Shown: piece after piece, positions 925-46,774 of the stretch | How the letters are laid out: each line of letters opens with the position of its first letter | Numbering within the stretch: the first letter of the stretch is position 1 | NCBI GenBank assembly: GCA_964276515.1 | Contig: OZ193910.1 | Coordinates: forward strand, 3,534,001-3,598,000 | Origin: Gordius albopunctatus | Lineage: Eukaryota | Length of the DNA: 64,000 bases | Direction of reading: 5' to 3' | Notes under the pieces: model-generated | What the model was told of the DNA's origin: nothing | Databases searched by the model: none | The model's input: only the letters and a program-made list of their open reading frames with translations | Program-made: the position numbers and the translations under genes

Positions 925-3781
925 CTCTTCTTCTTTATCGTGTTGAAAATCCCACAGACGTGGAATACGTTTTCAGCAGCCTCTTCCATCTAAGTCGTGT
1001 GAATGCCATGCCAATTTCCATCTGTTTGACGTCCATATCCTTTTCGACCAGTCGTTTCCAGGTGGCACATGGTCTGCCCCTTCCTCTTCTTCCAGGCACA
1101 TCCATCTCCAGCGTTCGGCGTGTGACATCGTCTTCGTCTCTTCGTAATACATGGCCGTACCACCGCAGTCGATTTTCTCCTAAGAAGCCCTTCGTCGCTT
1201 GTAGACCCATCTTTGTCATCAAGGATTCGTTCGTCATGCGATCCAGCTTGGTGTAGCCTAAGCTCCATCGCACCATTCTCATTTCCGTGACTTGCAAGAG
1301 TTTCTCCTCCGCGGTGGTTACAGCCCATGTTTCGCTCCCGTAAAGCAAGACCTGTCGTACGATGGTTTTGTACGCCTTGCTTTTCAACCAAATTGGTATC
1401 TTTTTGTCATACATGACACCGGAGATGCTGCGCCACTTGAGCCATGCTTTCTTGATCCGAGAATGGACTTCGGCGGTACATCCTCCCTCTTGATGTAATA
1501 GCGCGCCAAGATATGTGAACTTATCAACCTCCGTGTACCTTGGACCGTCATTTTTGTGCATTTGCGGACTACCGCCCATCGTTTGCATGTAAACCGTTTT
1601 CTTCTCGTTGACCTTTAACCCGAATTCCGAAAAACGTTCTGACCATTTTTTCGCCTGATGAAAAACCCCTTCTCTTGTTTCATCGCATAGGACAATATCG
1701 TCGGCATATAGCATAGTCCAAGGGGCTGGCTTGTGCAAGTCCTTTGTTATTGTATCCATAATTAGATTAAACAAGAATGGGCTTAAAGCTGATCCTTGAT
1801 GTAGTCCGATCATTACTCGGAAGGGTTTCGTTACTCCTACGGTAGTCCTAACAGATGCAACCGCGCCATTATACATTTCCTTGATAAGTCGAACATATCC
1901 TTCGGGTATATTTCTGGCTCTAGGGGACCACCATATTAAGTCTCTCGGAACCGTATCGTAGGCCTTTTCTAAATCGATGAAGGCCATGTGTAAGTTCTTT
2001 CTTATGCCGCCATATTTTTCCATCGTCTGCTTCAACGCAAAGATTGGATCCATCGTTGATTTACCGGCCACAAATCCAAACTGATTGGGCGAGAGACAGA
2101 CTTCGTCATTGAGCCTTTTCACTAGCACCCTTTCTAGTAGTTTTAGTGAGTGGCAGGTCAACTTGATACCTCTAAAGTTGCCACATTCCTGCGCGTTTCC
2201 TTTGCCTTTGTATATGGGTATGATCGTACTTTCCCTCCATTGGTCAGGGATACGACTCTCATACAGCATAGCGTTAAATAGGCCTGTCATTATGTCGATT
2301 CCTTCTACTTTGCACCCAAGCCAAGCTTCGATCGGTAAATTATCGGGACCTAGCGCTTTTCCTTTCCGCATCTTCGTTAGTTGCGCTCCTACTTCATAAG
2401 CCTGCAATGGTAGAACCAAGTTCGAGTTCGGTTCCACCCTCTCTAGCGGTCTTCTATCATTCGTTTTGTTCATCATATTTTGGAAATAATCTTTCCATCT
2501 TTTGATGACTTCCTTCGGTTTGCACAACGTTCGTCCCTCTTCGCTTTTAATGACTTTAAGTGTCCCGACATCTCGACTTTTTTTCTATCTGATCTTTGCG
2601 AGTTTATACATGACTATGTCGCCGCCCTTGGTATCGAGCTTGTTTGCCATCTCGGTGTAAGCCTCGTTCTTTGCTATCGCAACCGCTATCTTAGCTTTGC
2701 GTTTCGCTTCACGATATGCCTCGTAGTCTTCTCCTTTCTTCGTTTTGTACCATCGTAGATACAACGCCTTCTTTTCTTCTATAACCTCTTTGACCGAGTC
2801 ATTCCACCACCATAGTTCACGCTTTGGAGCTCTGCAGGCCGTTTCCTTTAGAACATTTGCCACAGTGCCCCACCTTAGAGCTGAGTTGCTCGAGCGTGAA
2901 ACATTTCATTTGCACGATCATCCTTAAGCTTTTCGTACTTTGTCCTTGGTGTGTAGACTTTTCTCCTTACGGGAAAAATCTTTCTTGCTATTTCGAGGAC
3001 AACTGGACGATGTTGTTTGGCGATTTCTTCCCCCGATATAACCTTGCAATCTTTAACTTGCCACAAATTTTTGCACTTCACTAATATGTAGTCGACCTAT
3101 GTAAGGTGATCCCCACTACTGTACGTCGCTAAATGTTCGGTACGCTTCTGAAAGAAGGTATTCACAATGGCCATATCGTAAGCTTGCGCCATCTGTAGTA
3201 ACTTCTCTCCCTCTTTATTTTTCACCCCATAGCCATTCCCGCCATGATTTCGTTCGTACACGCCCCTTTCTTTCCCAACGTGCCCATTAAAGTCTGCTCC
3301 GATGATGAGATTCTCGTCAGGCTTCACGTAGCGTATTTCTTTTTCGAGCTTCTCATAGAATTCGTCCTTCTCACTTTCGGAACATCCAACCTGGGGCGAA
3401 TACGCACAAATAACATTGACAAGGCCGCCTTGATCCGCCAGCTTTATGCACATCAATCTATCTGAGCATCGTTTGACTTCGACTACCTTGTCCTTAAAGG
3501 AATCGCTAAGCACTATACCGACCCCGTTCTTCCGTGATGGGGAATCCGAGTAGTATAGCTTGTAACCATCTCCTAGCTCCCTGGCTTTTGTTCCATGCCA
3601 CCGCGTTTCTTGTAGACACGCTATGTGTATCCTTCGCCTTTTTAGCATCTGCGCAACCTCGATGCTCTTCCCCGTCAGCATGCCCACATTCCAGCTAGCC
3701 ACTCTTGACCGTTCGACAACTAGGTTCCTTAATGTATACTTTTCACATTGCACGGGCGGATGATGCAATGCGCGTCGTTTG
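925..3781 (-). mobile_element. RTE-clade non-LTR retrotransposon, near full length, frameshifted (AP endonuclease + reverse transcriptase)
   Basis: ORF 3097-3768 has APE motifs (SWNVG, ACLQET, GADFNGH). ORF 935-2527 has RT motifs (FIDLEKAYD, GLHQGSALSP, LYADD). Short (GAA) tail at ~925-934. Candidate 8-bp TSD CGAGTTAT at 917-924 and 3782-3789. Confidence 0.93.
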
Positions 3782-6540
3782 CGAGTTATAAATTAATTAA
3801 ACAAATCAATAGAATATAAGGCAGATGTAGGACGATGGCAGAGGGAAATATCCGTGCACCCAATAGGCTAGGTCGCGGTTATGCATAAGGATTAATGAAC
3901 GTGTTGGGTTAGGGGGTCGTTTGGTTCTTTGTAGATAATTGCAGTTACTAGGCAGAACAGAAAAAAATATATAAATTAAATTCAGGGTAAAAATCTAGCC
4001 TTATAAACCCTGTCGATGCGCTTCTCAATTTGCATGAGGGATGCCTTACGACAGGTCGACGTACTTCAGATCTCCACTAATATGAGCCATGCCTTTTACA
4101 TATTCGTCTGCTTCTAATTAGTGCCCATTTATTAACATAACTAACTACATTACATTTTATTCACATCCCTTATTACTTTAAACATTATTAATTCCCACCA
4201 TTAGTTGGCAGGAACACGCCGTCCCTCCTAGCACATTTGCGTAAGCGCACCACATTAAATTAAACTACTAAACCCCAACTGCAACAATAAAATCAAATAT
4301 ATATTAATAAATTATAAAGATTAATGTGGGCATATAAAAACTCATGAGTTATAAGGGAAGGCAGAAAAGGCTAAATTGGTAAAAAAGTGTAGCGTTTCTT
4401 TCGACTTTAAACATTTTAACAACTAAATAAAACAACGACTTTCAGTTGTTTCCTGGATATTCGTACCAATTTTGATTCGGGTACATCCATTAAAATTTTT
4501 GTATGCATGAATCAGAAATTAAAATCATATGAAATATTTAATTTGTACATATAAATATATATATTTTAATTATATTATATCAAATAAATTAGATTTAATT
4601 GTTAATAATGATAATAGTTAATAATTAATAAACATATATTATTATCAATTGGTTCAATGTGTATATGTAGCATAATTAAAGCTAGAGTAATGCTATAAAA
4701 CGTTTATTATTATTGTTGAAAGCTGGATCTTCACATAAACTATTAGGACTGGGATACAATAATCGAAAAGTGAGTTAAAACGTGTATATCCAACGCATAT
4801 ATAAGTTACATCCAATTAACGATAATTTGATCGACAACACGTAGGTAAATAACGTATTCCCGGAGGCACTTCGCACTCCTATTACCTCTCTACAATTATA
4901 TTGAATGTTATATAAAACACTTCAATTACATTGTAACAAATAAATTAGATGTAACGGTTAATAATAATAATAGTTAATAATTAATGAACATGTGATACTC
5001 TCAATTGGTTCAATTTGCATATATAGCATATGTAAAGCAAAAGTAAAGCTATAAAACGTTATGCATTTTATATCTGTTGTAATATGTATCTTATATAACA
5101 AAAATAAAACAATAGTTAATGATATATATAAAATGAATAGATATTATCACTGGTGCATATTATATCTGTTGTAATATCTATCGGATTTAAATAACATATA
5201 ATAATAGTTAATTATATACATAAAATGAATAAATATTCTCACTACTGTGTTTAATCTACAATATAGTTTAAGTAAAATAAGCTTAATACAATAAAACATA
5301 CTATTGCTACATTTAAAAATAAATAGTGTGTAAAATAATCATTGAAAGTTGTTAAAAGAATCACTCATGAATATAAGCCAAAAACGTTTAATAATAAAGA
5401 TCATTTACTATTGGCATGTAACCAATATAAATAGTAAAGACATTCCAAAATATTTAGTGAGATGATATAATTTTCCTAAAATATACAATTAAGTCTAATA
5501 ATATAAGATGGTCTATGAGTAAATATAAAACACATGCAGCGCGAATTATTAACATATTTTCAAGCTTGTATTTAAAAATTAAAATTTAAACAAATTTATA
5601 TTTATTATTGTAAATCAATTTAATCATATAACGGGGCATCGTGACCTTGTAAGTGCATATAAGGGGCATGGGGTTAGATACATTTGTATATTGAGCTATA
5701 AGGCGATTTATATTATAATTAATAGAAACGTATTTTTTATTTGTTTCATACACTCTCTTTCCCTGAGAGATGTGTAGCAAATCAACATTAGTTTTCTCTT
5801 GTAGGTCTTGCAGGAAATCAACAAACACATATATAGTAGGGTGGGTTTGTTTGAGCCCACTTCTAAGAGCATTATGAAAACCTTCCAAGTGGTTGTTGGT
5901 TCGGGGCCTCTCTGCATCAAGCCGTTGCCACATATCATAGGGCAACAAGGGGTCCCTCCTAAGCCCAACCCAGGTATTGTGGATGTACAAAAAAAAATTC
6001 TCAATTTCTCTATCGCCGCGCACATTGAGCTGAACCATGCAAAGGGTCATGACATCGCTGATGTGCCCTCTCTTCACAAATGGTAATGCTAAAAGACGAC
6101 GAACGCAGCGCTTGAAATCAGCATTTGATTAATAAAGATTCTTCATTTTGCCACACCCAGTGTGTCGATAGATCGCCTGGCCAAAATGAAACAAGCAACC
6201 TAAAAATTATATAAACAAAACTTTAAATTTTACCATTTAAAATAATATTAGGGAAACAGGCTACAAAGGCCCCGATGCTTGCCGGTTCGAAATCAACATG
6301 TGCATAGTTTGGGGCAAAAACTAGCTGCAAGGTAGCACAAATCTGAATAAGTTTCCTAAACACTTTCTTATATGTATCTTCCGTTTTATCAGGCAGAAGT
6401 GTATATACTACTGGAGCCATATGATCCCGGTAATGAGAATGAATTGTATAAATCTAAAAACAACAACGTTACGGATATATTAAAAAAATGTAAATACTTT
6501 AGTAAAATGTTGGGGCAACATTTAAAAGTACCGTCCCAAT

Positions 6541-22734: not shown

Positions 22735-25615
22735 TATAGAAGGCGGTTAAGGAAACTAGTTGTGGAAAGAATGCGAATTACGTGCTGGAATGTGGGAACA
22801 TTGACGGGGAAGAGCATCGGGGTCGCACAGATGTTAAAAAGAAGAAAGGTACACATCGCCTGCCTACAAGAGACGAGGTGGAACGGAACGAAAGCTCGGG
22901 AATTAGGAGAAGGATACAAGCTTTTCTACAGTGGGTCACCAAATCGTAGAAACGGGGTCGGGATCGTTCTAAGCGAATCGTTCAAGGAAAAGGTGGTGGA
23001 AGTCAAACGTTGTTCCGACAGGCTAATGTGGGTGAAGATTGCGGATCAAGGGGGCTTCCTAACCGTTATGTGCGCTTATGCTCCCCAAATTGGGTGTTCG
23101 GAATCAGAGAAAGACATATTCTTCGAATCATTGGAAAAGGAAATACAAGGAATCCGACAGGAAGAAAGGCTAATTATTGGGGCCGATTTCAACGCTCACG
23201 TAGGGAAAGATCGCCTCGGGTATGAACGCAATCATGGAGGTTATGGGCATGGTCTGAAGAACAAAGAAGGGGAAAAACTTCTACAAGTATCCAAAGCATA
23301 TAACATGGCGATCGTTAATACCTATTTTCAAAGCGCGAAGATCATATTGTGACCTATAGAAGTGGGAAGCATTTTAGTCAAATCGACTATTTGCTTATAC
23401 GGCGAAAGGACTTATGGAGTATCAAGGATTGCAAAGTAATACCGGGAGAAGAAATCGCCAGGCAACATCGTCCCCTTGTTATGGATCTTGACAGAAGAGT
23501 ATTTCCCGAAAGAAGAAAGGTATATGAACCTCGAATTCGATACGAAAGGCTAAAGGATACGTCGACGAAAGAAGAATACCATCAAAAAGCCTCCTCACTC
23601 TTGGGTGCAAGGAAGTTGCAAAGGGACGTAGACGAAGATTGGGAGACGCTATCTAAGGACATTAAGGAAACAGCGATTCGTGTTCTAGGACAGACCAAAG
23701 AAGGCAAAGCTATGAATAGGGAACTATGGTGGTGGGATCAATCGGTTAAAGATTTCATCGAAATAAAGAAAAATCTATATAGACGGTGGCATAAATCAAA
23801 AAAGTCGGAGGATTATCAAGAGTACAGGAACGCAAAGAGGGCCGTAAAAAAGGCCGTTGCAAAAGCGAAGAATGCTGCGTACACCGAGATGGCAAACAAA
23901 CTGGATCACAAAGGGGGCGATAGGCTTATGTACAAATTGGCCAAGATAAGGGAGAAGAAAAGTCGAGATGTCGGAGTTCTTAAAATAGTTAAAAGCGGGA
24001 AGGGTCAAACCTTATTCAAGCCGAAGGAAGTGATGGAAAGGTGGAAAGGATATTTTAAGAAACTTATGAATATTGCAAATGACAAGGATTCCCTTCCCGA
24101 AATTGAGCCAAATATAAGCATGGTCGAACTCTTTCAGAAGGATGAAGTTAGGACACAAATGAACAAGATGCAAAAAGGAAAAGCAAATGGCCCAGATGGA
24201 ATGCCTATGGAAGCATTGCTCGGATGTCGTGAAGAAGGAGTCACCACCATGACGAACCTCCTTAACAAGATATTGGTAGAAGAGCGAATCCCTAATCAAT
24301 GGAGAGCAAGCACGATTATACCCTTATTCAAAGGCAAAGGAGACCTTCAGGTCTGCGGCAATTACAGAGGTATCAAGCTAACTTGCCACTCCTTGAAGCT
24401 TATGGAAAGAATCTTAGTAACAAGGCTGAAAAACGAGGTGGAAATATCGGCTAATCAATTCGGATTTGTGGCCGGCAAATCCACAATCGACCCAATCTTC
24501 GCCCTAAGACAAATGATGGATAAGTATGGTGAAAAGAGGAAAGACCTACATATGGTTTTTATCGACTTGGAGAAAGCTTATGACACGGTCCCCCGCGATT
24601 TAATATGGTGGTGCCTGAGGAAACAAAATATCCCTGACGCATATATAAGGCTTATGAAAAATATCTATGAAGCCTCAAACTCTTGCGTTAGGACGACAGT
24701 TGGAGACTCTAAACCTTTTCGGGTTAATATTGGATTACATCAAGGCTCTGCTTTAAGTCCCTTTTTATTTAATATAATTATAGACACGATAACGAGGGAC
24801 TTTCAAAAGCCATCGCCATGGTGTATGCTATATGCCGATGATATAGTACTATGCGAGAAAACAAGGGAGAAGGTATTCGAAGAAGCAGAAAAGTGGTCAA
24901 AGCGCTTAGCTGGATATGGTTTAAAGGTCAACGATCAAAAAACGGTATACATGGAAATGAACGGTACAAGCACCCCATCGCTGGATGACCACCTAAAGTA
25001 CCCAAAAGTAGACAGGTTTACTTACCTCGGCTCTATGCTATATCAAGAGGGAGTTTGCGCAACTGAAATCAATGCCCGGATTCAAAAAGGATGGCTTAAA
25101 TGGCGAAGTATATCCGGTGTAATGTGCGACAAGAAAATGCCAATATGGTTGAAGAGCAAAGCTTACAAATCCATCGTAAGACCGGTGTTACTCTAAGGAA
25201 GTGAAACATGGGCATTAAACACCACGGAAGGAAAGCTATTACAAGCCACGGAGATGAGAATGATACGGTGGAGCTTGGGGTATACTAAGCTCGACCATAT
25301 GACGAATGACTTTCTCATGACAAAAATGGGTATTCAACCTATGGCGGACATGATTAACGAAAATCGGCTAAGGTGGTATGGGCATATACTAAGAAGGGAC
25401 CCGGATGACGTAAATTGAAAAGTGCTAGACATGAAAATACCGGGGAAGAGAGGAAGAGGACGACCCCGTGTCACGTGGAAAAGGCAAGTCGATAAAGTTA
25501 TGAAAACTAAAGAGATTAGTCAAGACATGGCACTAACCCGGTCAAGATGGAAGAGACTCATCAAAACAAACCCCACCAATGTGGGACCAAATGACTGATA
25601 AAGAAGAAGAAGAAG
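22735..25615 (+). mobile_element. RTE-clade non-LTR retrotransposon, near full length with few lesions
   Basis: APE ORF 22762-23352 with one frameshift into RT ORF 23349-25196 (LYADD). Premature stop at 25194-25196, coding similarity continues to ~25597, then a (GAA)n tail at ~25601-25615. Related to, but diverged from, the 925-3781 copy. Confidence 0.94.
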
Positions 25616-28600
25616 TAGCTGACCCGGCAAACGTTGTTTTGCTATATGTACATTCGTTAGTTATATATTTTATAACATCTTCTAATTTCGAGTCAGGATC
25701 TTATAATTTTAAATAAAAAATGGAATGCTGGCCAGCAATTTCCAAAATATAAATTTAAAATTATTATATTGATAACAACATAATTAAACATAATTAAATA
25801 ATGTGTTAATATACTTACCTAAAACAAATCCCTGATCCGTGTATAACCCGCCATCCCTCCTCTCCACCCCACCGTCCTTTTAATTGATCTAAAATAATAT
25901 ACTATAATCTACACAATATTTCCAATATTTAAAGTTTTAACATAATTAAATCCATCTATATTGTGTTAATATACTTACCTAAACAAATCCCTGATCCGGT
26001 ACGCCATCCCTTCTCCTCAAGCCACTGTCCTATGAATGGATACGATTCTTGTATAAAATAATGTACACAATATTTCAAATATTTAAAGTGTAACTTAATT
26101 AAATCATCTATAATGTACTATACCAAAACGATAAAAACAAATCCTTGATCCGTTTATAACCCGCCATCCCGCCTCCACCCCACCGTCCTTCTAATGAATC
26201 TAAAATTATATGCAATAATCTACACATTTGAAATATTTAAAGTTTTAACATAATTAAATCATCTATATTGTATTAATAGACTTACCTAAAACAAATCCCT
26301 GATCCGTTACGCCATCCCTCCTCTTCACGCCACCGTCCTATTAATGGATACGATTATTGTATAACATAATCGACACAATATTTCAAATATTTAAAGTTAA
26401 ACTTAATTAAATCATCTATAATGTATTGATATACTTAACGAAACGATAAAAAAATCCCTGATCCGTTTTACTTCACAATTAATCTCTACGTGCTATGGAG
26501 TATACAATATTTTTGGTTAGACCGTCTTTAGCCAACACAAACAAACTGGATGGTTTACCCACGCGAGAACATGCCACATATAGTTGTCAGTGGGAAAAGC
26601 ATGGTGGGCTCAAATCTAAGCCACAAATAGACATTGTTTGGCCCTGGGCTTTATTAATTGTCATTGCGAAAGCTAATCTAATCGGAAATTGAATGCGTTT
26701 GAATTGAATGGGTACATCTGAGGGAAAAATAGGAATTCGTGGCAGCAATACATTTTCACCTCGGAACTTTCCATTCAAAATGGTGACTTCGAGAAGATTC
26801 TTCATGCATTTTTTAATGACTAATCTTGTGCTATTGCACAGCCGTGGTAGGTTTAAATTGCTAAGCAAAATTACCGGAGAGCCAACATTCAATTGTAAAA
26901 GGTGAGGAGGCATGCCTGACAAATCCAATGAATTCAAAAACTCAATCGGATAATTTACAACTTCGTTGGCATCACATACTGTATCGACATATTTGTATGA
27001 TATTAAGTCACCTGGCAACAACTGTTGTATCTTGGAATTTAAATCATTGACGTCCACATTTTTTGCTGATTGCTCTTTCTGCCAGCAAATCAAGATTGTT
27101 GTATTCTGTGTAAAGATTTGGAAATACATGGTGAATGAGAGCAGTTTGCGTCTCTACAATTGTGCAAAAATCCGATGGTAATATTTTCAGCGGATGCATC
27201 TTTAGGCATTTGAACGCGCATGTTTACTTTCAGCTGTAGTTTCAAAACATGACACCAAAGTGAGGATGACTTTAAGCAGGCTTTGATCTCATCAGCGTAC
27301 GTTGAATGCGGAATAACGGGAATTGTTTGTCGAAAATCACCTGAAAGCAGTAAAAGAGTACCGCCAAAAAGTCTGTCGTTGTTCTTTAGATCCTTCAATG
27401 TCCTGTTCAATGCCTCAAGCGAACGTTTGTGTGCCATAGTGCATTCATCCCAGATGATAACTTTACATTGTTTGGGCACTCTGGCCATGGACAATTGTTT
27501 TTTTTATGTTGCACATTGCTTCAGGGTTATTTTGAATATTAAGTGGCAGCTTAAATGCTGAATGAGCTGTTCTGCCTCCATCTAATAAAGTAGCTGAAAT
27601 GCCAGATAAAGCAACGGCCAAGGCGATGCCATTTTTTGATCGTATCTCAGCAAGAATTAGCGAAATTAGAAATGTTTTGCCAGTCCCTCCCGGTGCATCC
27701 AAAAAAAAGAAACCCCCTTGTCCTTCAGAAATTGCAAGCAAAATGCGGTCGTAAATGATTTTTTGTTCGTTAGTGAGTAGCGGGACATTGCGAGTAACGA
27801 ATGCTGCCAATTCTATAGTATTGTATTGTCGTTCACGATTCATATCAGTATTGATTAAATCAGATGCATTTCGATTTGGTGACCGCATACCGAAATGGCT
27901 GATGTTTAAATTGGCGATGACAATGCAAAGATCCTCAATAGCTATCAATGCTTCATTGTACATGCAGTCGGTGAATGGTATCGTTAGATCGTTGCTCATA
28001 TGACGATATCGATGCAATATATCATCAGTCATAGAATCTTTGTCATTATCCCACAATGTTTGTGCTCGGGCCGAAAATTAGAAGAATTTGCGCTCCTGTA
28101 CAGTTTAATGATGCTTCCTTCAGTAAGCATACTGTCCCAATGATTGTCGTCTTCTAGCAATCCTAATTCAAGGCATGCATCTCTATAGGTTGGATAATGT
28201 TGTCCATTTACTTTACGGATATCATGAAAAGACAAAGGGCCGGTGAAATTAACCAACAACAGGTGCAGATAAAAGCACTCAGTCTGTCTTGGATTGACTG
28301 TATATACACGACCTAAATTGTTTGATTTAAATAAACCGGGGCATGCATCAACTTGTGTGCCTTGCTTGTGCGGCATCCATTTTCTCGATTGCGCCCACGT
28401 AAAATAGCGCGGTACTTCTGAATAAAGTAGTGTTCGTGCGAAGGCACCAAAAGCATCGGAGGAATTACACAAAGCAAAAAAAGCTGTTAGTGTGGTGTTT
28501 GGTGGATTTATTTAACGATCAAAAGCCGTCTCGTTTGTGAAAAAAACGCGTTGGCCGTTTTCAAGATGAACAGCTAAATGGATAACTGCTGGATGACGTT

Positions 28601-31600
28601 CATGAATTGGAAACCCGAAAATTCGCCAAATAGCTTCATTGGAGCTGATGTATCGTCCAATTTGGTAGTTGGTAATTTCATCACTGTAATTCAATGGCGT
28701 AGCATTCACATTGGTATTTTCAACTCTAAATACAGCCATATCACTTCCTTTATTAATATATTTGCAAATGTATTTTATGCTTTTGACCGAATTGCAGAAC
28801 TCAACATTAATATGAGCATTGAATGTTTTACAGAGGAGAGGTGAGTATGGTACGACCCAACGATTGTCGATGTTAATGTCTGCGTTACTGATAGTTTTGC
28901 TAAATAATTGTCCGCCATCATCGGTACTTCATCGACGATATATAGGATATCCGTCCCCATGTGTGACCCTATCGTTGGTAAAATCTTTAGGAAAACGTTT
29001 TGTACACTTTCCATCTAACATGTAAGACGATGAAGGATTTAAAGCACCGCATGGGCCATGAATCATATTTTCGGTGATAATATCAAACAATAATTGATTA
29101 GTAGAAGGATTTGGTATTTCTGCGGATACTAAACTATCTATGTCTTCTGGGCGTATTTTGTCAATGAACCAAATCAAAATATGTGCATGAGGTAATCCAC
29201 GCTTTTGCCACACAATCGAATACATCCAACAACTTGCGGGGCCAAATATGTGTAATTTTGTTATAAAGTTAACGAAAGACCTTAATTTTTGTTTAAACAC
29301 ACGGGCTATTATGTCATGACGATGTATTGCATTTTGTCGTGGTAAGAGTAACGATGTAATTTCCTGCTATTTTGGGTTACATGTAAAGGTGATAAATAAA
29401 AATGGTCGTCCGTATTCGCGTACGTAAGCCATGGCATCCTGTATGTATTCTTGCATGTGACGCGGACTACCTACGTACGATGATGGTAGAATAATGGAGC
29501 TACCAATTTCGGCAGCGTCAGCGTTGGTAGCGATAGTGTCTCGCAGGTGGATGTATTCTTCAGCACGCAGCATTTTCTGGTTATAACGTAAGAAGCGTAA
29601 GCGCTCGCTCTCAATCTTCACATACATATCCACAATGAACTGCTGGTAAAGCTCTCGACAGCGTAGAATGATGTTGTTTTCACCGTTTCTAATCATCAAA
29701 CGATAGGCATAATAATCCATCGAGCTCACTTTTTTGCTTGTTTCAGCTCCTGTGATATGATACATACAAAAAAAATTAAAAATGAGTAGTCATGTTTTAT
29801 GTTGTATAAAATACCATTTCGGGGATCCCGTTGTTTAATGTTTATAAAATAACCGTCTTGCCCCTTCCAAAAAATGAGCGGAGATTGGAGAGCGTCATAG
29901 GAACGGTGGGTATCAGGAATGAACTGTAGATTATCATCTCTTTTGCGAATCACGATTTGGCGCGAAGCTGTACGGTCGCCAATCATGATTCCAGCAACAT
30001 CGTCAACAGCAGGTGCATTAAATCTACGTAAATGCTGTCCCACAGGTGTTTTATCAGGATAGATGACAATAGCGTGTTTGTCACTTATTAATTTGGGCAT
30101 GTGTGCTTTAAATAATTTTAACAATTCATTGTGCTCAGTCAACAGAACGTCCAGATCGCTGACGATGCGCCTGGCAAAAGGTGAATTAATGTGATTGTAG
30201 CCGCAACGTGCATTTACGCGATTGGCTAGTGCGCGTTCAGAGTCCTCACCACCCATAAAGTAAATTTGTAAAAATTTATAGGAATCGTTTGGCATTAGCA
30301 GCAGTGAGCCAACTTTGTGAAAAACTTGGCCTTTGTTGAATTAAATAGCTGACCGTTTCCAGCATCAGTTTTAACTATTTCTGTTGCTCCGAACGATGTC
30401 ATTTGGAAGCATGAATTAAATGTGCGAATTGACTTTAGGAATAGGCTAGAATCAGGATCCGTGCCAATTAGTAAGCCGTGCAATGGTTCAGGTGGTGCTT
30501 CAATTGCCGTTAGTTGTAATTTTCCTGATGCGCAACACATCCCTGGTGGCTCATTTTTAAATTTAAGTGCATGACAATGTGGACATTCATTGTCTATAGT
30601 ACCAATTACCACTTTGGAATGAGCGTAATATTCAACGTCAGGCTCATAATGGAATGCTAGTCGGAGGAATGAAGCTGATGTAAATGCTCGATGTACTTGT
30701 TGGAGTTGTTGGTTAATAGCTCTACGTGTGTTAAACACGAAGCGGCGCTCTTGTCTTTCGTCTAATCTTCTTTGTAGATTTAGTTTATATATAGTCTCTT
30801 GCGATTGTGATTCACGGAATAAAGCCATACTAACACGCACATCTGCATTATTTTGTAAAAGTTGTTCATCTGTTCTCTGTGCTCGTTTATTGCGCAAGAC
30901 TGCATTATGTTTTGTTCGACGATCTAAATTGGCTCCTTTGCGTTTTGCAGGCATTGATAACTGTAAATAATTAAAATAGTGGCAATTTAATGATAACACC
31001 TACACTTATTATGAAGGTTAGAGACTCCCAATTTTTGCTTATAAATGCTATTTATAATCAAAGTTAATTTTAATAATACATTGTCACTTCAAGAATTTAA
31101 ATCAGGAAGGGGCAAAACATTTGAAATAATTTAGGGAGGGGCAGAAGGCATAAATTATATGATTATAATTTATTCGTATTAATTTTTTATATTTTTTTCT
31201 CATTTAGGGGAAGGGGCGGCCGCCCCTCCCTGTCCCCCTTGGCTACACCCATGAAAAATCGAGAGCTTCAAAAAAATATAAAAATTTTGGTTTGAAAAAC
31301 TTTCTAGTATATGACAGAAGAAGCCAAAGGAATGTTAGGGTTTCTAAATGTTGGGGTATTTCAAATATGATTAGTTTTTTATTTGATGCTGTTTAAAAAT
31401 TAAAAGTGTATTAAAAGATATTTTATAAAAAAAGTTAAATGATTACTTAATAGTACACTTTTCCAGTAAATGACAGAAGAAGCCAAAGGAATGTTAGGGT
31501 TCCTAAATGTTGGGGTATTTCAAATATGATTAGTTTTTAATTTGATACTGTTTAAAAATTTAAAATGTATTAAAAGATATTTTATCAAAAAAGTTAAATG

Positions 31601-36386: not shown

Positions 36387-37427
36387 TAGAGCCCTGCAAA
36401 GTCACATTTTTTCAACCCGACCCGAAAGTGTTTTTAATTTTTCAACCCGAACCCGACCCGAAAGCGTTTTAAATATTTTAAATTGATTTGCCAAAATAAA
36501 TTGGAGAAAAAATTTGACGCCACGAATTTGAATAATAAATTTATTTGAGAGAATTATTATAATTATGTATAAATATAATAGCGTCTACAATTTCAGGCCG
36601 TAAACTCGACCTCCTATCTTCTAAAATTCGTCCAGCTGTAGAAAAAGATCTCTCACTGGACGCAGAGGAGGCAGCAGGTATGGCCAGAAATTTACGAGCC
36701 AATAACCCTAAAGCAGGATATTTATAAGAATATATTCTCCACCATTCTAATGTGTCGTATGTTTCATCATTTTTTGCAAGTTTATAATGAATATATTCCT
36801 CAAGTTCATCTTTTTCTTGAACATTTTCATCTGCACATTCCTCCCAACCGGAAGAATCCATGAAAGACAAGTTAGCATTATTTTCTAAAATATATTTTAA
36901 CATGAAGTTATATGTTAAATACCTAGCTGATTATTTTCCTTTGATACCTCCCTTTCAACAACTGGCTTTTCCTTTAGACTTTCGCAACTTTTATCATTCA
37001 TTAATGACCTAATCTTAAGCTCTTCAGGCTGCAGCATTTTCATCTGTTTGTATTTCGGCGTTAAAAATTTAACTATCTTGTAGTACATATCTTGATCGAA
37101 TTTTTTATTTAATATTTGCTTGCACCTTTTGGCAAGACCATGTAGTTCTGATTTAATGTCGTAATTTTTGGTGAAATCATTTAATTTGTAAAAATATAAA
37201 AGAAATTTATTTAAAGTTGGGGCCTTATCAGCCTCAAGTTCTGTAATTGCCATATTGAATGGCGTTAAGAACTTTGTCAACTCATCAAGCATATAAATGT
37301 CAATACATTTTATCTTTGAAGAGTCCCCGGTAGAGGTCAAAAGCGTTTCGACCTCTTCATAATTCTTCAACACCGAGTCTAGCATTTTAAAACGGCTATT
37401 CCACCGCGTTTTTAAATAGTTCAATTA
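36387..37427 (-). mobile_element. hAT transposase 3' half plus terminus (left arm of palindrome)
   Basis: TRWNS, LEWW...YP.L..LARKFLAIPAASSASSERSFSTAG; terminus TAGAGCCCTGCA at 36387. Confidence 0.9.
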
Positions 37428-37920
37428 ATGAAAAATATGAATGGGTCAAGAAAAGGGTTTTGTGCCTAAACTGTCTTAGGCAAAACCATAATGCCTATCA
37501 ATGCAGGGCCGGAACTTGTAAGATTTGCCAGAAAAGGCATAATACCTTACTGCATAAATCATTCATTCATTGGCACGCCATTTTTATTCATATATCAGCA
37601 ATCCCTAAACTTCCTCCCTGTTAACACATTCAACAATCGCATCATCACCACACATTTTATAATCAATCACATTCATTCGCATTCCATAACGATACACATT
37701 AAGCAAGTTTTCACATTCGCAATCTCACATGTTATACGTTTTTAATTCATTCACATAATTCAATCTAAAACATTTAAATAAACAAAATCTTCAACATTTT
37801 GGTCCTTCGAGCCGGATATGAACCAGCGACCGAGAAATATAAGCGTAATGTTGAAGCGAAATGTGGAAATAAGTAGAAGTTATTGAACGCGCGAAGTTTA
37901 GAATAATATTAAAACGCGAA
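37428..37920 (+). mobile_element. BEL/Pao LTR retrotransposon pieces: gag zinc-knuckle fragment, LTR 3' end, tRNA-Tyr primer binding site (PBS), LTR 5' start (mirrored at ~39853-40345)
   Basis: EWVKKRVLCLNCLRQNHNAYQCRAGTCKICQKRHNTLLH (37439-37555). AATAAA then CTTCAACA (37789-37796). TGGTCCTTCGAGCCGGAT from 37800. TGTTGAAG at 37849. Confidence 0.82.
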
Positions 37921-38294
37921 AATATTGGAATCAGGCTCTGATTCAGCCATTCCCACAAGCACACTTCTCAGGCTTTCTTTTAGGATGAACTTATTGCCTT
38001 GCAACCTGATGAGGTCAACCTCACTTAGAACATTCACCCTACACACATCATCCACAGCTTGTCCATTGTAAGCCACCAGAGAGAAGTTCAAAAGATTGCC
38101 TAACTTCTCTCTCCTGTTTTTATCTCTAGGGTTTATTGTTCGGCTTCCATGGCAAGACTCATCTCCTCTCCAGACATAACAATAGTGTCAGTCATGTTGT
38201 ATTTAAGTAGAGAGCTTGTAAATAATGAGTATAGCAGTTATGGTAATTGGGTAATGGGTTTATCAAATATAACAATTGTAAGGCAGACTTTGTG
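37920..38294 (-). pseudogene. Endogenous viral element: internally deleted phenuivirus-like nucleocapsid copy with its 5' UTR
   Basis: ATG at 38195 (MTDTIVMSGEEMSLAMEA) is joined out of frame at ~38143 to the C-terminal RTINPRDKN... segment. CACAAAGTC begins 99 nt upstream of the ATG. Confidence 0.78.
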
Positions 38295-38327
38295 AAATAA
38301 AGGGAATAATTTAGTTTAGTCCGCATC

Positions 38328-38746
38328 ATGACTGACACTATTAGTCTTGCCATGGAAGCGTGCCAGGAATACTTCAGGAATCATTTGATCTACCCAACAA
38401 TTACTGAGGAGATCTATGATGCCATGAGATACAAGGGCTTTGATCCACAAATGATCATGTGGTCAATGTTCACTGCCCATAAAAGATCCCCACCTGTGAG
38501 GATCAACACTTTCAATTCTTCAGGATTTTTACACCACTTATGCCTTCTGGCTGGAAGTGCTTGCATGAGGGGGACTAAAGTTAAGAAGATCCTCCAAAAG
38601 TCAGAAGAGTCCTACAAAGAGGACATAAGGAAGTTGGTGGAACTCTACAAAATCAAGGATTCCACCCCCACTGACAATAAATTGAGCCACAGGAAGTGGA
38701 GATGAGGATGAAAATACCACTGACGAGACAACAGCAGGGGCCAGAC
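38328..38746 (+). pseudogene. Phenuivirus-like nucleocapsid N-terminal half (duplicate of 39117-39535, probably an assembly overlap)
   Basis: Appears identical to the copy 789 bp downstream, across the N gap. Confidence 0.6.
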
Positions 38747-38946
38747 NNNNNNNNNNNNNNNNNNNNNNNNNNNNNNNNNNNNNNNNNNNNNNNNNNNNNN
38801 NNNNNNNNNNNNNNNNNNNNNNNNNNNNNNNNNNNNNNNNNNNNNNNNNNNNNNNNNNNNNNNNNNNNNNNNNNNNNNNNNNNNNNNNNNNNNNNNNNNN
38901 NNNNNNNNNNNNNNNNNNNNNNNNNNNNNNNNNNNNNNNNNNNNNN
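38747..38946. other. Assembly gap (200 N)
   Basis: Run of n characters. Confidence 1.
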
Positions 38947-39116
38947 CTCATCTCCTCTCCAGACATAACAATAGTGTCAGTCATGTTGTATTTAAGTAGA
39001 GAGCTTGTAAATAATGAGTATAGCAGTTATGGTAATTGGGTAATGGGTTTATCAAATATAACAATTGTAAGGCAGACTTTGTGAAATAAAGGGAATAATT
39101 TAGTTTAGTCCGCATC

Positions 39117-39864
39117 ATGACTGACACTATTAGTCTTGCCATGGAAGCGTGCCAGGAATACTTCAGGAATCATTTGATCTACCCAACAATTACTGAGGAG
39201 ATCTATGATGCCATGAGATACAAGGGCTTTGATCCACAAATGATCATGTGGTCAATGTTCACTGCCCATAAAAGATCCCCACCTGTGAGGATCAACACTT
39301 TCAATTCTTCAGGATTTTTACACCACTTATGCCTTCTGGCTGGAAGTGCTTGCATGAGGGGGACTAAAGTTAAGAAGATCCTCCAAAAGTCAGAAGAGTC
39401 CTACAAAGAGGACATAAGGAAGTTGGTGGAACTCTACAAAATCAAGGATTCCACCCCCACTGACAATAAATTGAGCCACAGGAAGTGGAGATGAGGATGA
39501 AAATACCACTGACGAGACAACAGCAGGGGCCAGACAGGACCCTGTATTCATCTACGCCAACGCCTCCCTAGATGAGGAGGACAAGAAATTAATAGGCAAG
39601 GCTGCTTTTGCCTATGCTATCAAATTTGACCGAACAATAAACCCTAGAGATAAAAACAGGAGAGAGAAGTTAGGCAATCTTTTGAACTTCTCTCTGGTGG
39701 CTTACAATGGACAAGCTGTGGATGATGTGTGTAGGGTGAATGTTCTAAGTGAGGTTGACCTCATCAGGTTGCAAGGCAATAAGTTCATCCTAAAAGAAAG
39801 CCTGAGAAGTGTGCTTGTGGGAATGGCTGAATCAGAGCCTGATTCCAATATTTTCGCGTTTTAA
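39117..39864 (+). pseudogene. Endogenous viral element: Tenuivirus/Phlebovirus-family nucleocapsid (N) gene, frameshifted at ~39472
   Basis: N half: MRYKGFDP...RGTKVKKILQKS...IRKLVELYKIKDSTP (compare phlebovirus YQGFD...RGNKP..M..KMS...L..KYKLK.G.P). C half from 39475 in another frame: AAFAYAIKFDRTINP...FSLVAYNGQAV...R..VL..VDLI (compare AHSLYLLQFSRVINP...PMNAAVNSNF...RR.FL...GLV). Confidence 0.82.
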
Positions 39865-40345
39865 TATTATTCTAAACTTCGCGCGTTCAATAACTTCTAC
39901 TTATTTCCACATTTCGCTTCAACATTACGCTTATATTTCTCGGTCGCTGGTTCATATCCGGCTCGAAGGACCAAAATGTTGAAGATTTTGTTTATTTAAA
40001 TGTTTTAGATTGAATTATGTGAATGAATTAAAAACGTATAACATGTGAGATTGCGAATGTGAAAACTTGCTTAATGTGTATTGTTATGGAATGCGAATGA
40101 ATGTGATTGATTATAAAATGTGTGGTGATGATGCGATTGTTGAATGTGTTAACAGGGAGGAAGTTTAGGGATTGCTGATATATGAATAAAAATGGCGTGC
40201 CAATGAATGAATGATTTATGCAGTAAGGTATTATGCCTTTTCTGGCAAATCTTACAAGTTCCGGCCCTGCATTGATAGGCATTATGGTTTTGCCTAAGAC
40301 AGTTTAGGCACAAAACCCTTTTCTTGACCCATTCATATTTTTCAT

Positions 40346-41354
40346 TAATTGAACTATTTAAAAACGCGGTGGAATAGCCGTTTTAAAATGCTAGACTCGG
40401 TGTTGAAGAATTATGAAGAGGTCGAAACGCTTTTGACCTCTACCGGGGACTCTTCAAAGATAAAATGTATTGACATTTATATGCTTGATGAGTTGACAAA
40501 GTTCTTAACGCCATTCAATATGGCAATTACAGAACTTGAGGCTGATAAGGCCCCAACTTTAAATAAATTTCTTTTATATTTTTACAAATTAAATGATTTC
40601 ACCAAAAATTACGACATTAAATCAGAACTACATGGTCTTGCCAAAAGGTGCAAGCAAATATTAAATAAAAAATTCGATCAAGATATGTACTACAAGATAG
40701 TTAAATTTTTAACGCCGAAATACAAACAGATGAAAATGCTGCAGCCTGAAGAGCTTAAGATTAGGTCATTAATGAATGATAAAAGTTGCGAAAGTCTAAA
40801 GGAAAAGCCAGTTGTTGAAAGGGAGGTATCAAAGGAAAATAATCAGCTAGGTATTTAACATATAACTTCATGTTAAAATATATTTTAGAAAATAATGCTA
40901 ACTTGTCTTTCATGGATTCTTCCGGTTGGGAGGAATGTGCAGATGAAAATGTTCAAGAAAAAGATGAACTTGAGGAATATATTCATTATAAACTTGCAAA
41001 AAATGATGAAACATACGACACATTAGAATGGTGGAGAATATATTCTTATAAATATCCTGCTTTAGGGTTATTGGCTCGTAAATTTCTGGCCATACCTGCT
41101 GCCTCCTCTGCGTCCAGTGAGAGATCTTTTTCTACAGCTGGACGAATTTTAGAAGATAGGAGGTCGAGTTTACGGCCTGAAATTGTAGACGCTATTATAT
41201 TTATACATAATTATAATAATTCTCAAATAAATTTATTATTCAAATTCGTGGCGTCAAATTTTTTCTCCAATTTATTTTGGCAAATCAATTTAAAATATTT
41301 AAAACGCTTTCGGGTCGGGTTTGGGGTTAAAAAATGTGACTTTGCAGGGCTCTA
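40346..41354 (+). mobile_element. hAT transposase 3' half plus terminus (right arm of palindrome)
   Basis: Reverse complement of the left arm; ends TGCAGGGCTCTA at 41354. Confidence 0.9.
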
Positions 41355-43606: not shown

Positions 43607-45250
43607 ATGATTTTAAAACTGGCTTCACTCAATACTCAAACCTTAAGAGAACCAGGAACCTTGCAGATCCTTACTTTATTTGCCTCCCACCACAGAATTC
43701 ACATTTTCTGCGTTCAGCAAACTAGATACTCACATCGCAAAGTTCTCCCCATTAACGACTATAATTGCTATTGCACAGAATGCGGCCTTGAGACTGCATC
43801 AGGGGTAGCCATTTTTATAAAAAAGGAACTCAAAGTGATTAGCATCGACTATGTTAACAACAGATTATTAATCATTCACTTAAAAATAAAAAATCGTTGT
43901 TCATCAATTTTAAACATATACGCTCCACACTCTTCCAAAAATTCTCAATCGATGGAATCCCTCCTCCAAAACATCACAGATAAACTTAAAACTAAACATC
44001 TTAATATCCTCGTCGGTGACTTTAATGCTTCCGTCCAGCTTTCATTGGGTGATAATAATTTAATAATTGGCCCGACTAACCGAAACGGTAAACTGCCTAA
44101 AAAATTCTGCTACAAACACAAACTAAAGATAACCTCAACCTTTTCCGACCTTCCTCTTGATAACCTAATCACATACCAAAAAAATGAAAATCACCAAGGT
44201 ACCCAAATTGATCATATAATATGCCAACTAAGAAACCACAAAATGATAAAGAACTTCCACACCTTTCAGCCTCTCTTAAAAACAGATAATTTTGTCATCT
44301 CAGCCGATCTCTTTATTAATCCCTCCTCTCTCCACTCGTCTAAAAAACTGAAAAAATACCCATATCGAGCAAACATAATCAGGCATCTCTCAACTTGAGT
44401 CCAGATTACAAACAGACTCGAAGGCTCTTGGCGATCTTGCCCCCCTCTCAGTCAATGACCACAATTACACTTTAGCAAAGTTTTTCACCCCATCCCAGAG
44501 TAACCATCTCCATATCAACATTAAGTCCTGGTTCTCCATCGATACCATTAATTTAACCGAGTCCCGATATAACGTTTTTAAGGATAAGACATTTAAAAAT
44601 AAAAAGCATGGGTCCAACATCTCACAAAAAAGATCAAAGCGGCAATAAAAAAGGACAAGGCTAATTACTTATCAAGCAAATTAAAAGAAGTAGAATCTGC
44701 TGCTCGCACAAACAGTACACACACGACACACCATTTAAAAAATTCTCAGAAACATCGCCGCAAAATTTGCAGATAAATATAATCACAACACAATACAAAA
44801 CGAACATAGCTCCAGCGATTCTTTGATCCAAATGGAGGCTTGGGAGAACTACTTTCGTTCCATTCTAGATCGCCTTTATTCAATCACCTGTTCCGACATA
44901 TTCCTTGAATTCATTAATAACTTCAAAACACCCACCACCCCTTCTATCAGAGTAGAACCACCCCCCTTGAATGAAATAAAATACGTGTTAAAATCCCTCA
45001 AACTTCACAAAGCATCCGATGCAGACAAAATCACAGCAGAAGCCTTTAAAGCTGAATACACCCTGTTTAGCGAACTCTTGCATCAATTCTTCACAAAAAT
45101 CTGGCAACAAGAGATCATCCCCCACGCTTGGTCTACTTAGTAAAATCTATAAAAAAGAAGACCCATCCCTTCCCGATAATTATAGAGGGATCACAATTAT
45201 AAATAACATTTCCAAGGTTTTTATAAAAATAATATACAGGAGGATATATC
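43607..45250 (+). mobile_element. Decayed non-LTR retrotransposon (AP endonuclease and start of RT)
   Basis: ASLNTQTL, CVQQTR, SGVAIF, NIYAP, VGDFNA and QIDHI (APE); IYKKEDP...NYRGITIINNISKVF (RT N-terminus). Many stops and frameshifts. Confidence 0.85.
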
Positions 45251-46774
45251 CATTCAGTGGTTCCCCCGCATAATCCCGAAAACGCAGAATCGCGAATTTC
45301 GAAACTAGGTTTTTCCGCCAATTTCAACATATGGAAAATTTGGAAAACTCTTTAACTATTGCAAATCAAGATAACAAAGAGGCACCACAGTAGCTAAATT
45401 TGTATTAAAAAACTTTTAAGTTTCTTACTTTGGAGATTTTGTTTATGTATACAATTTTGGGAATGTTCTGATGTTATCATAAAATTATTATATCTAAGGA
45501 CAGCTCTTCCTGGGCATTTACATATACTGTAGTGCCTGCACTTATAGTATACTTGTCCCATCTTACCTGCTCTGATCTTGATATAGTCAAACTTTTTGAA
45601 AGTGACTATATAATTTTTTCTATTAGATTTTTTAAAACCTATAACAATATGTGTATGCTTGCATAATAAAGCTTACTTATATTCTCTTTGTTATCTTGAT
45701 TTGCAATAGTTAAAGAGTTTTCCAAATTTTCCATATGTTGAAATTGGCGGAAAAACCTAGTTTCGAAATTAGCGATTCTGCGTTTTCGGGATTATGCGGG
45801 GGAACCACTGAATGGATATATCCTCCTGTATATTATCTTTATAAAAACCTTGGAAATGTTATTTATAATTGTGATCCCTCTATAATTATCGGGAAGGGAT
45901 GGGTCTTCTTTTTTATAGATTTTACTAAGTAGACCAAGCGTGGGGGATGATCTCTTGTTGCCAGATTTTTGTGAAGAATTGATGCAAGAGTTCGCTAAAC
46001 AGGGTGTATTCAGCTTTAAAGGCTTCTGCTGTGATTTTGTCTGCATCGGATGCTTTGTGAAGTTTGAGGGATTTTAACACGTATTTTATTTCATTCAAGG
46101 GGGGTGGTTCTACTCTGATAGAAGGGGTGGTGGGTGTTTTGAAGTTATTAATGAATTCAAGGAATATGTCGGAACAGGTGATTGAATAAAGGCGATCTAG
46201 AATGGAACGAAAGTGGTTCTCCCAAGCCTCCATTTGGATCAAAGAATCGCTGGAGCTATGTTCGTTTTGTATTGTGTTGTAATTATATATATCTGCAAAT
46301 TTTGCGGCGATGTTTCTGAGAATTTTTTAAATGGTGTGTCGTGTGTGTACTGTTTGTGCGAGGAGCAGATTCTACTTCTTTTAATTTGCTTGATAAGTAA
46401 TTATCCTTGTCCTTTTTTATTGCCGCTTTGATCTTTTTTGTGAGATGTTGGACCCATTCTTTTTATTTTTAAGTTTCTTATCCTTAAAAACGTTATATCG
46501 GGACTCCGTTAAATTAATGGTATCGATGGAGAACCAGGACTTAATGTTGATATGGAGATGGTTACTCTGGGATGGGGTGAAAAACTTTGCTAAAGTGTAA
46601 TTGTGGTCATTGACTGAGAGGGGGGCAAGATCGCCAAGAGCCTTCGAGTCTGTTTGTAATCTGGACTCAAGTTGAGAGATGTCTGATTATGTTTGCTCGA
46701 GATGGGTATTTTTTCAGTTTTTTAGACGAGTGGAGAGAGGAGGGATTAATAAAGAGATCGGCTCAGATGACAAA
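44291..46774. repeat. Inverted duplication: ~1.09-kb arms (44291-45381, 45684-46774) with a ~300-bp spacer
   Basis: Mirror ORFs (44823-45140 and 45925-46242, among others) differ by few substitutions. The spacer encodes a FLYWCH-like peptide on the minus strand. Confidence 0.92.

Follow-up and report, generated by a model that had tools for sequence, protein, structure and literature searches.

The locus analysed here raises the question of whether a 32-nt copy of tRNA-Tyr, lying between an LTR-like piece and a virus-like N sequence, is the trace of a reverse transcriptase (RT) that read through m1A58 of its own primer. The window, that is, the whole 64,000-nt stretch of DNA that was analysed, holds the following features at this place.

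36387..37420, − strand: hAT transposon, 3′ half including a terminal inverted repeat (mirror at about 40353-41354, + strand; Dimer_Tnp_hAT at E=1e-20 on the mirror copy)
37421..37573, + strand: BEL/Pao gag zinc-knuckle fragment, directly fused with the LTR-like piece (all 5 homologs are 52-66% identical)
37575..37799, + strand: G-poor LTR-like 3′ part with its CA end at 37796 and then a TTT spacer, recognized by GC skew and end geometry; its 5′ boundary is not defined
37800..37817, + strand: 18-nt primer-binding site (PBS), antisense to tRNA-Tyr(GUA) 76-59 (probe matches; same place after CA and TTT as in the BEL/Pao loci L002 and L003)
37818..37831, + strand: 14-nt extension, antisense to tRNA-Tyr 58-45 (13/14 against Drosophila probes)
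37818..37818, + strand: A facing tRNA position 58 (T58 in tRNA sense), a mismatch against the probes and likely an m1A misincorporation
37832..37926, + strand: purine-rich linker of about 95 nt, putatively element leader or U3 end; right boundary approximate
37927..38195, − strand: phenuivirus-like N copy that lacks 482 nt internally and runs antisense to the BEL piece
38747..38946, no strand: 200-N scaffold gap with an exact 589-nt direct duplication on its flanks, likely an assembly overlap
39117..39846, + strand: phenuivirus-like N copy, frameshifted and internally deleted, with its 5′ part present again at 38328-38746 on the other side of the gap
39942..39973, + strand: the 32 nt mirrored, reading in tRNA sense (exact reverse complement of 37800-37831), a duplicate of the same event

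The tRNA-Tyr copy

A by-eye comparison with the published Drosophila tRNA-Tyr(GUA), a reference from Drosophila and not from the host, gives agreement at 31 of the 32 nt of 37800-37831 across tRNA positions 45-76, the sole mismatch being position 58. Counted back from A76, position 58 is a T at 39955 in the mirror copy and an A at 37818 on the left arm. Two Drosophila northern probes give the same picture: The first (PMC13730582, Table S2) agrees with the copy at 21 of 22 bases over positions 73-52, and the second, dmtRNAYr1, which spans tRNA-Tyr 65-41 (PMC4536317), at 20 of 21 over positions 65-45, both with their miss at 58. The last 12 nt of the copy are identical to the Tyr_GUA 3′ end including CCA (PMC13524379 supplement). 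The sequence-only reading had taken the mirror copy to be tRNA-Tyr 45-76 with a T at position 58, and both coordinates and probes bear this out. It should be noted that the non-A at 58, where Drosophila tRNA-Tyr has A, is defined against Drosophila, from which the host genes may differ.

Agreement with the tRNA stops after G45, where 1/4 of the next probe bases agree. The T stem is complete within the copied bases (5/5 pairs, one G.U among them), and the chance of matching 13 of the 14 specified bases behind the PBS is ∼4e-8. A full cloverleaf with a 5′ half is absent at the 32-nt copy, the match ending at 45, so that this is not a tRNA gene; Rfam returned no tRNA match for the fragment, and ARAGORN found no tRNA gene in the 64,000-nt window.

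Complementarity to the tRNA thus extends over 32 nt, beyond the 18 nt at most of a canonical PBS, the usual length being 8-18 nt (PMC13524379). The antisense tRNA sequence runs from the PBS past position 59 and is contiguous with U5, as in over-extended plus-strand strong-stop DNA. The CCA had earlier been read as a sign of a mature RNA template. That argument fails, given that ordinary BEL/Pao PBSs encode CCA (both comparison loci with a PBS do), and we rejected CCA as proof of an RNA template. Since every such PBS already encodes it, the evidence for read-through consists of the 14-nt extension and the mismatch.

Both 32-nt copies sit inside an inverted repeat of 1.7 kb (36438-38143 / 39630-41333) that surrounds the 200-N gap and whose arms are 99.6% identical, with one mismatch in the inner 1595 nt. 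The mirror copy was therefore rejected as an independent replicate: As both belong to one inverted repeat, the two copies count as one observation.

The BEL/Pao remnant and its linker

On the + strand, the left arm runs from the hAT 3′ half through the zinc-knuckle fragment, the LTR-like stretch, TTT, PBS, extension and linker to the antisense virus-like N. On homology, we assign the fragment at 37421..37573 to BEL/Pao gag because its homologs carry DUF1759 (4/5) and the Pao peptidase, Peptidase_A17 (2/5), and the Cys/His residues are invariant; the 51-aa fragment by itself has no Pfam match. A BEL/Pao remnant is thus indicated by gag zinc knuckles together with an LTR end of CA, a short spacer and a tRNA-Tyr PBS. 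An intact element was not found: There is no second LTR outside the mirror, pol is missing, gag precedes the LTR, and the window holds no other LTR copy of this family. The gag-LTR-PBS order is rearranged, and more deletion junctions lie within 400 nt. Helenus/Ajax-type elements were rejected as an identity, their tRNA-like part being inside the LTR and not a PBS.

A scan of metagenome contigs yielded three BEL/Pao loci (L001-L003) among 41 candidate stretches; none was found in viral contigs (0/60 and 0/15) or prokaryote genomes (0/29). L002 and L003, two loci that belong neither to this family nor to this organism, both show the CA-TTT-PBS geometry of the window, and this shared geometry confirms the PBS of the window; in both of them, the tRNA match stops at 18 nt. 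L001 has no PBS match of 9 nt or more. The GC skew of the LTR-like end is −0.70, compared with −0.57 (L003) and −0.40 (L002) for the LTR ends of these loci. At PBS position 12, L002 (1263-1280) and L003 (195-212) have A, against G in both the window and the Drosophila probe, which reflects either another isodecoder or a tolerated mismatch.

Within the linker at 37832-37926, the 10 nt at 37847-37856 repeat the LTR end in inverted orientation (shuffle p=0.0035), which suggests that the linker belongs to the same BEL/Pao element. It could be a leader that pairs with U5 or else a U3 end, in which case the junction would be of the circle type and would have kept a copy of the primer. Its GC skew of +0.52 is nearer to the leaders (+0.09, +0.22) than to the U3 starts (−0.13, −0.05) of the two comparison loci available for each, and it lacks a G-run like the PPTs of L001 and L003. 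From its composition and the missing G-rich PPT, again with two comparison loci each, we lean toward a leader, an identity compatible with a mis-transfer that happened once and also with an extension that was inherited. The leader of L003 also carries a 7-nt complement of its LTR end, which is not significant (p=0.10). We rejected the idea that the linker is the same LTR folded back or present a second time, as the match is only 10 nt long (local-alignment shuffle p=0.32).

Origin of the 14-nt extension

The account that we favor, with some reserve, is that the 32 nt are a BEL/Pao PBS extended by 14 tRNA-Tyr bases, probably as a one-off scar from an RT that did not stop at m1A58 of the mature tRNA priming it. 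The proposal made from the sequence alone, that the primer was read through and position 58 misread, is well supported by the 14 extra tRNA bases, the lone mismatch at 58 and the BEL/Pao context. The weights that we give to the one-off scar and to its four rivals are judgements, not computed values.

During plus-strand synthesis, the BEL/Pao RT would pass m1A58 instead of stopping there and place a dA opposite; it would then copy the T arm and variable loop and stall after G45, at the base of the anticodon stem. The strand's 14-nt tail, being unpaired, would preclude a clean plus-strand transfer and lead to a jump or joining to another piece of the same element, either the leader or, as in a circle junction, the U3 end. 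That piece would itself be attached to cDNA of the virus antisense strand, and the aberrant chimera would enter the genome, the mirror duplication arising later, in the cell or in the assembly. The chimera would have no function of its own and could at most be a putative piRNA source.

Each step has precedent. RT normally halts before m1A58 (PMC8599865), RTs that pass m1A misincorporate (PMC4787781), minor retroviral plus-strand products reach positions 55, 54 or 37 (PMC13191261), and over-extended plus-strand ends fail normal transfer (PMC13191261, PMC8599865, PMC11251516). The m1A-A context has a low C signal (PMC4787781), and since the base following here is A59, T58 is an expected outcome. 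The presence of m1A58 on the host tRNA-Tyr is an assumption from conservation, the primer list in the accessible part of PMC13191261 not naming tRNA-Tyr.

The closest known products are the over-extended plus-strand strong-stop DNAs P3-P5 of HIV-1 RT, in which U5-PBS is likewise followed by antisense tRNA beyond 59 after a failed m1A58 stop (PMC13191261, PMC8599865). Those products are transient and end at 55, 54 or 37, whereas the sequence in the window belongs to a BEL/Pao element, ends at 45 with a mismatch at 58, and is found in an assembly. The reverse-transcription signature of m1A (PMC4787781, PMC8062790) likewise consists of a non-A at A58, with T fitting the m1A-A context, although it was obtained in vitro from many reads with other RTs and the window offers one molecule, made presumably by a BEL/Pao RT in vivo. 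Retained tRNA copies are also on record. A reverse-transcribed mature tRNA-Gly with CCA abuts the LTR end of an HIV provirus, with deletions nearby (PMC12220202), and the same paper describes tRNA copies kept at retroviral U5 ends in the MLV circle of Colicelli and Goff 1986 and in HITME 2006. These copies are near-full-length, non-cognate and from cultured cells, in contrast to the apparently cognate primer, 32-nt length and T58 seen here.

Against a one-off scar, the end at 45 is neither the tRNA 5′ end nor among the known stops at 58, 55, 54 and 37 (PMC13191261), and the linker is leader-like, so that an intact PBS-extension-leader could have been inherited. Under this alternative, which we regard as rather unlikely, the extension is older, probably also derived from read-through, was fixed in the family or a subfamily, and was carried along when the virus was captured; it perhaps aids primer annealing, with position 58 free to mismatch as m1A cannot pair. 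Lentiviruses and spumaviruses do inherit primer over-extension sequences, that is, genome-encoded primer complementarity beyond 18 nt (PMC8599865, PMC13191261), and the nonsignificant LTR-end complement in the L003 leader points the same way. The conserved over-extensions in those viruses are nevertheless only ∼4 nt long compared with 14 nt here (PMC13191261) and reach ∼54-55, not 45 (PMC8599865, PMC13191261). Neither of the two other, unrelated BEL/Pao PBSs has an extension (0/2), and the locus is heavily rearranged.

The mismatch itself bears on a second alternative, in which A58 either carried no methyl group or was read correctly by the RT, and T replaced A only afterwards through an ordinary point mutation. 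RT at times inserts the correct base opposite m1A (PMC4787781), and the 67-nt tRNA-Gly copy beside the HIV U5 matched its gene perfectly, without the mismatch that the window shows, so that a misread at 58 need not accompany read-through (PMC12220202); the single substitution between the two arms shows that mutations or errors do occur at this locus. Given one mismatch in 32 nt, however, the chance that it falls on exactly 58 is 1/32, and the likelihood ratio for a misread over a later point mutation is at least 9 (range 9-240), a rough figure under an assumed background divergence of 0.07-0.005 and misread rates of 0.2-0.4. The upper divergence follows from 0 stops in 292 gag and N codons, which implies less than ∼0.07, a bound lenient to the misread reading in that the frames were picked as open. 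Taken together, we consider a later mutation improbable.

More improbable still is a capture at the DNA level, by which a break in the PBS was repaired by copying 14 nt of a genomic tRNA-Tyr gene or pseudogene, with 15 shared nt as homology: Positions 59-73 are indeed common to PBS and tRNA genes, and with CCA already in the PBS no RNA template is needed, but a gene template would supply A58 according to the Drosophila probes, A58 is among the most conserved tRNA contacts (PMC8599865), and the ARAGORN search of the window gave no tRNA gene. An assembly chimera or consensus error is barely credible even at a gapped, repeat-rich locus with an exact 589-nt overlap at its N gap, near-identical mirror arms and hAT ends without 8-bp target duplication, given that the gap is more than 900 nt from the PBS and that an assembler is unlikely to create an LTR, CCA and tRNA 45-57 with a change at the one biologically special base.

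The virus-like sequence and the duplicated unit

The one-off scar of read-through, if this is what the extension is, lies ∼95 nt from a deleted phenuivirus-like N sequence. We call the latter phenuivirus-like from sub-threshold matches: Pfam Tenui_N aligns with 39117..39846 in two collinear segments (E=2e-4, profile 19-95; E=0.09, profile 148-211), both below the curated cut-off, and PDB nucleocapsid matches are weak (E 0.03-0.7). Other searches for virus relatives gave no match, the Atlas search having covered the sequence without its C-terminal part. The two N copies lie head to head with different deletions, the left one holding 21 nt near its start that are missing from the right, and the right one holding 482 nt missing from the left. 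They are separated by ∼130 nt of unique spacer (38196-38327), and the frame entering this spacer has no Pfam match.

Provided that the linker derives from the element, the viral cDNA is likely to have a BEL/Pao origin; that the cDNA is tied to a BEL/Pao RT event we only infer. Possible, if doubtful, is the further proposal that read-through took place in the same RT cycle that copied the virus, and that over-extended plus strands, being untransferable, are a route by which retrotransposon-virus chimeras enter insect germlines without normal integration.

The insect literature includes the element Diver, which we take to belong to BEL/Pao. Diver accounts for 44% of mapped chimeric reads, and Pao/Bel is enriched near EVEs (PMC5857290, PMC6797480, bioRxiv 10.1101/127498). 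In infected fly cells, LTR elements form circular chimeras with deleted viral genomes, the two parts lying in opposite orientation (PMC5857290), and mosquito EVEs are located near LTR elements, Pao/Bel among them (PMC6797480, bioRxiv 10.1101/127498). The locus would resemble these chimeric vDNAs and nrEVEs in joining deleted virus-like to LTR-element sequence, and its geometry fits theirs; the accessible portions of the three papers mention no primer over-copy or modification scar at a junction. Most Aedes EVEs, as far as those portions show, share the polarity of the LTR element, and the Pao/Bel link is with chuviruses; here, in contrast, N is phenuivirus-like and opposite in orientation to the BEL sequence.

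Primer over-copying, the signature of misread m1A and the joining of LTR elements to viral sequence have each been published before. One case, with no family copies beside it, neatly confirms known chemistry and does not amount to a new mechanism. The literature searched, which included few subscription papers, contained no description of an EVE junction bearing an m1A58 scar. EVE-retrotransposon links rest mostly on proximity. A primer scar whose error is specific to a modification identifies, at the level of sequence, the RT and tRNA behind a DNA molecule. Should such scars recur at EVE junctions, one could test directly in genomes how RNA viruses other than retroviruses are copied into insect germlines, and would have a fossil record of m1A58 and of retrotransposon RT behavior in vivo. 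If read-through and virus copying did share one cycle, over-long PBS scars would be enriched at EVE junctions, naming RT and primer for each capture and recording tRNA modification in vivo.

Either a genuine fold-back composite or a mis-join in the assembly would account for the unit 36387-41354, which carries the same hAT end on both sides and has unrelated outer flanks. A second long inverted repeat lies at 44291-46774 (1091-nt arms, 99% complementary, 302-nt loop), and more nested inverted repeats are spread across the window. The window is dense in transposons, with a broken Helitron (26587-30999), two oppositely oriented LINE-type elements (935-3792 and 22639-25196) and a MULE-type transposase fragment (19038-19667). 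Amid these, 11772-13007 holds an unbroken DPAGT1-like frame of 411 codons with glycosyl transferase 4 and DPAGT1 insertion domains.
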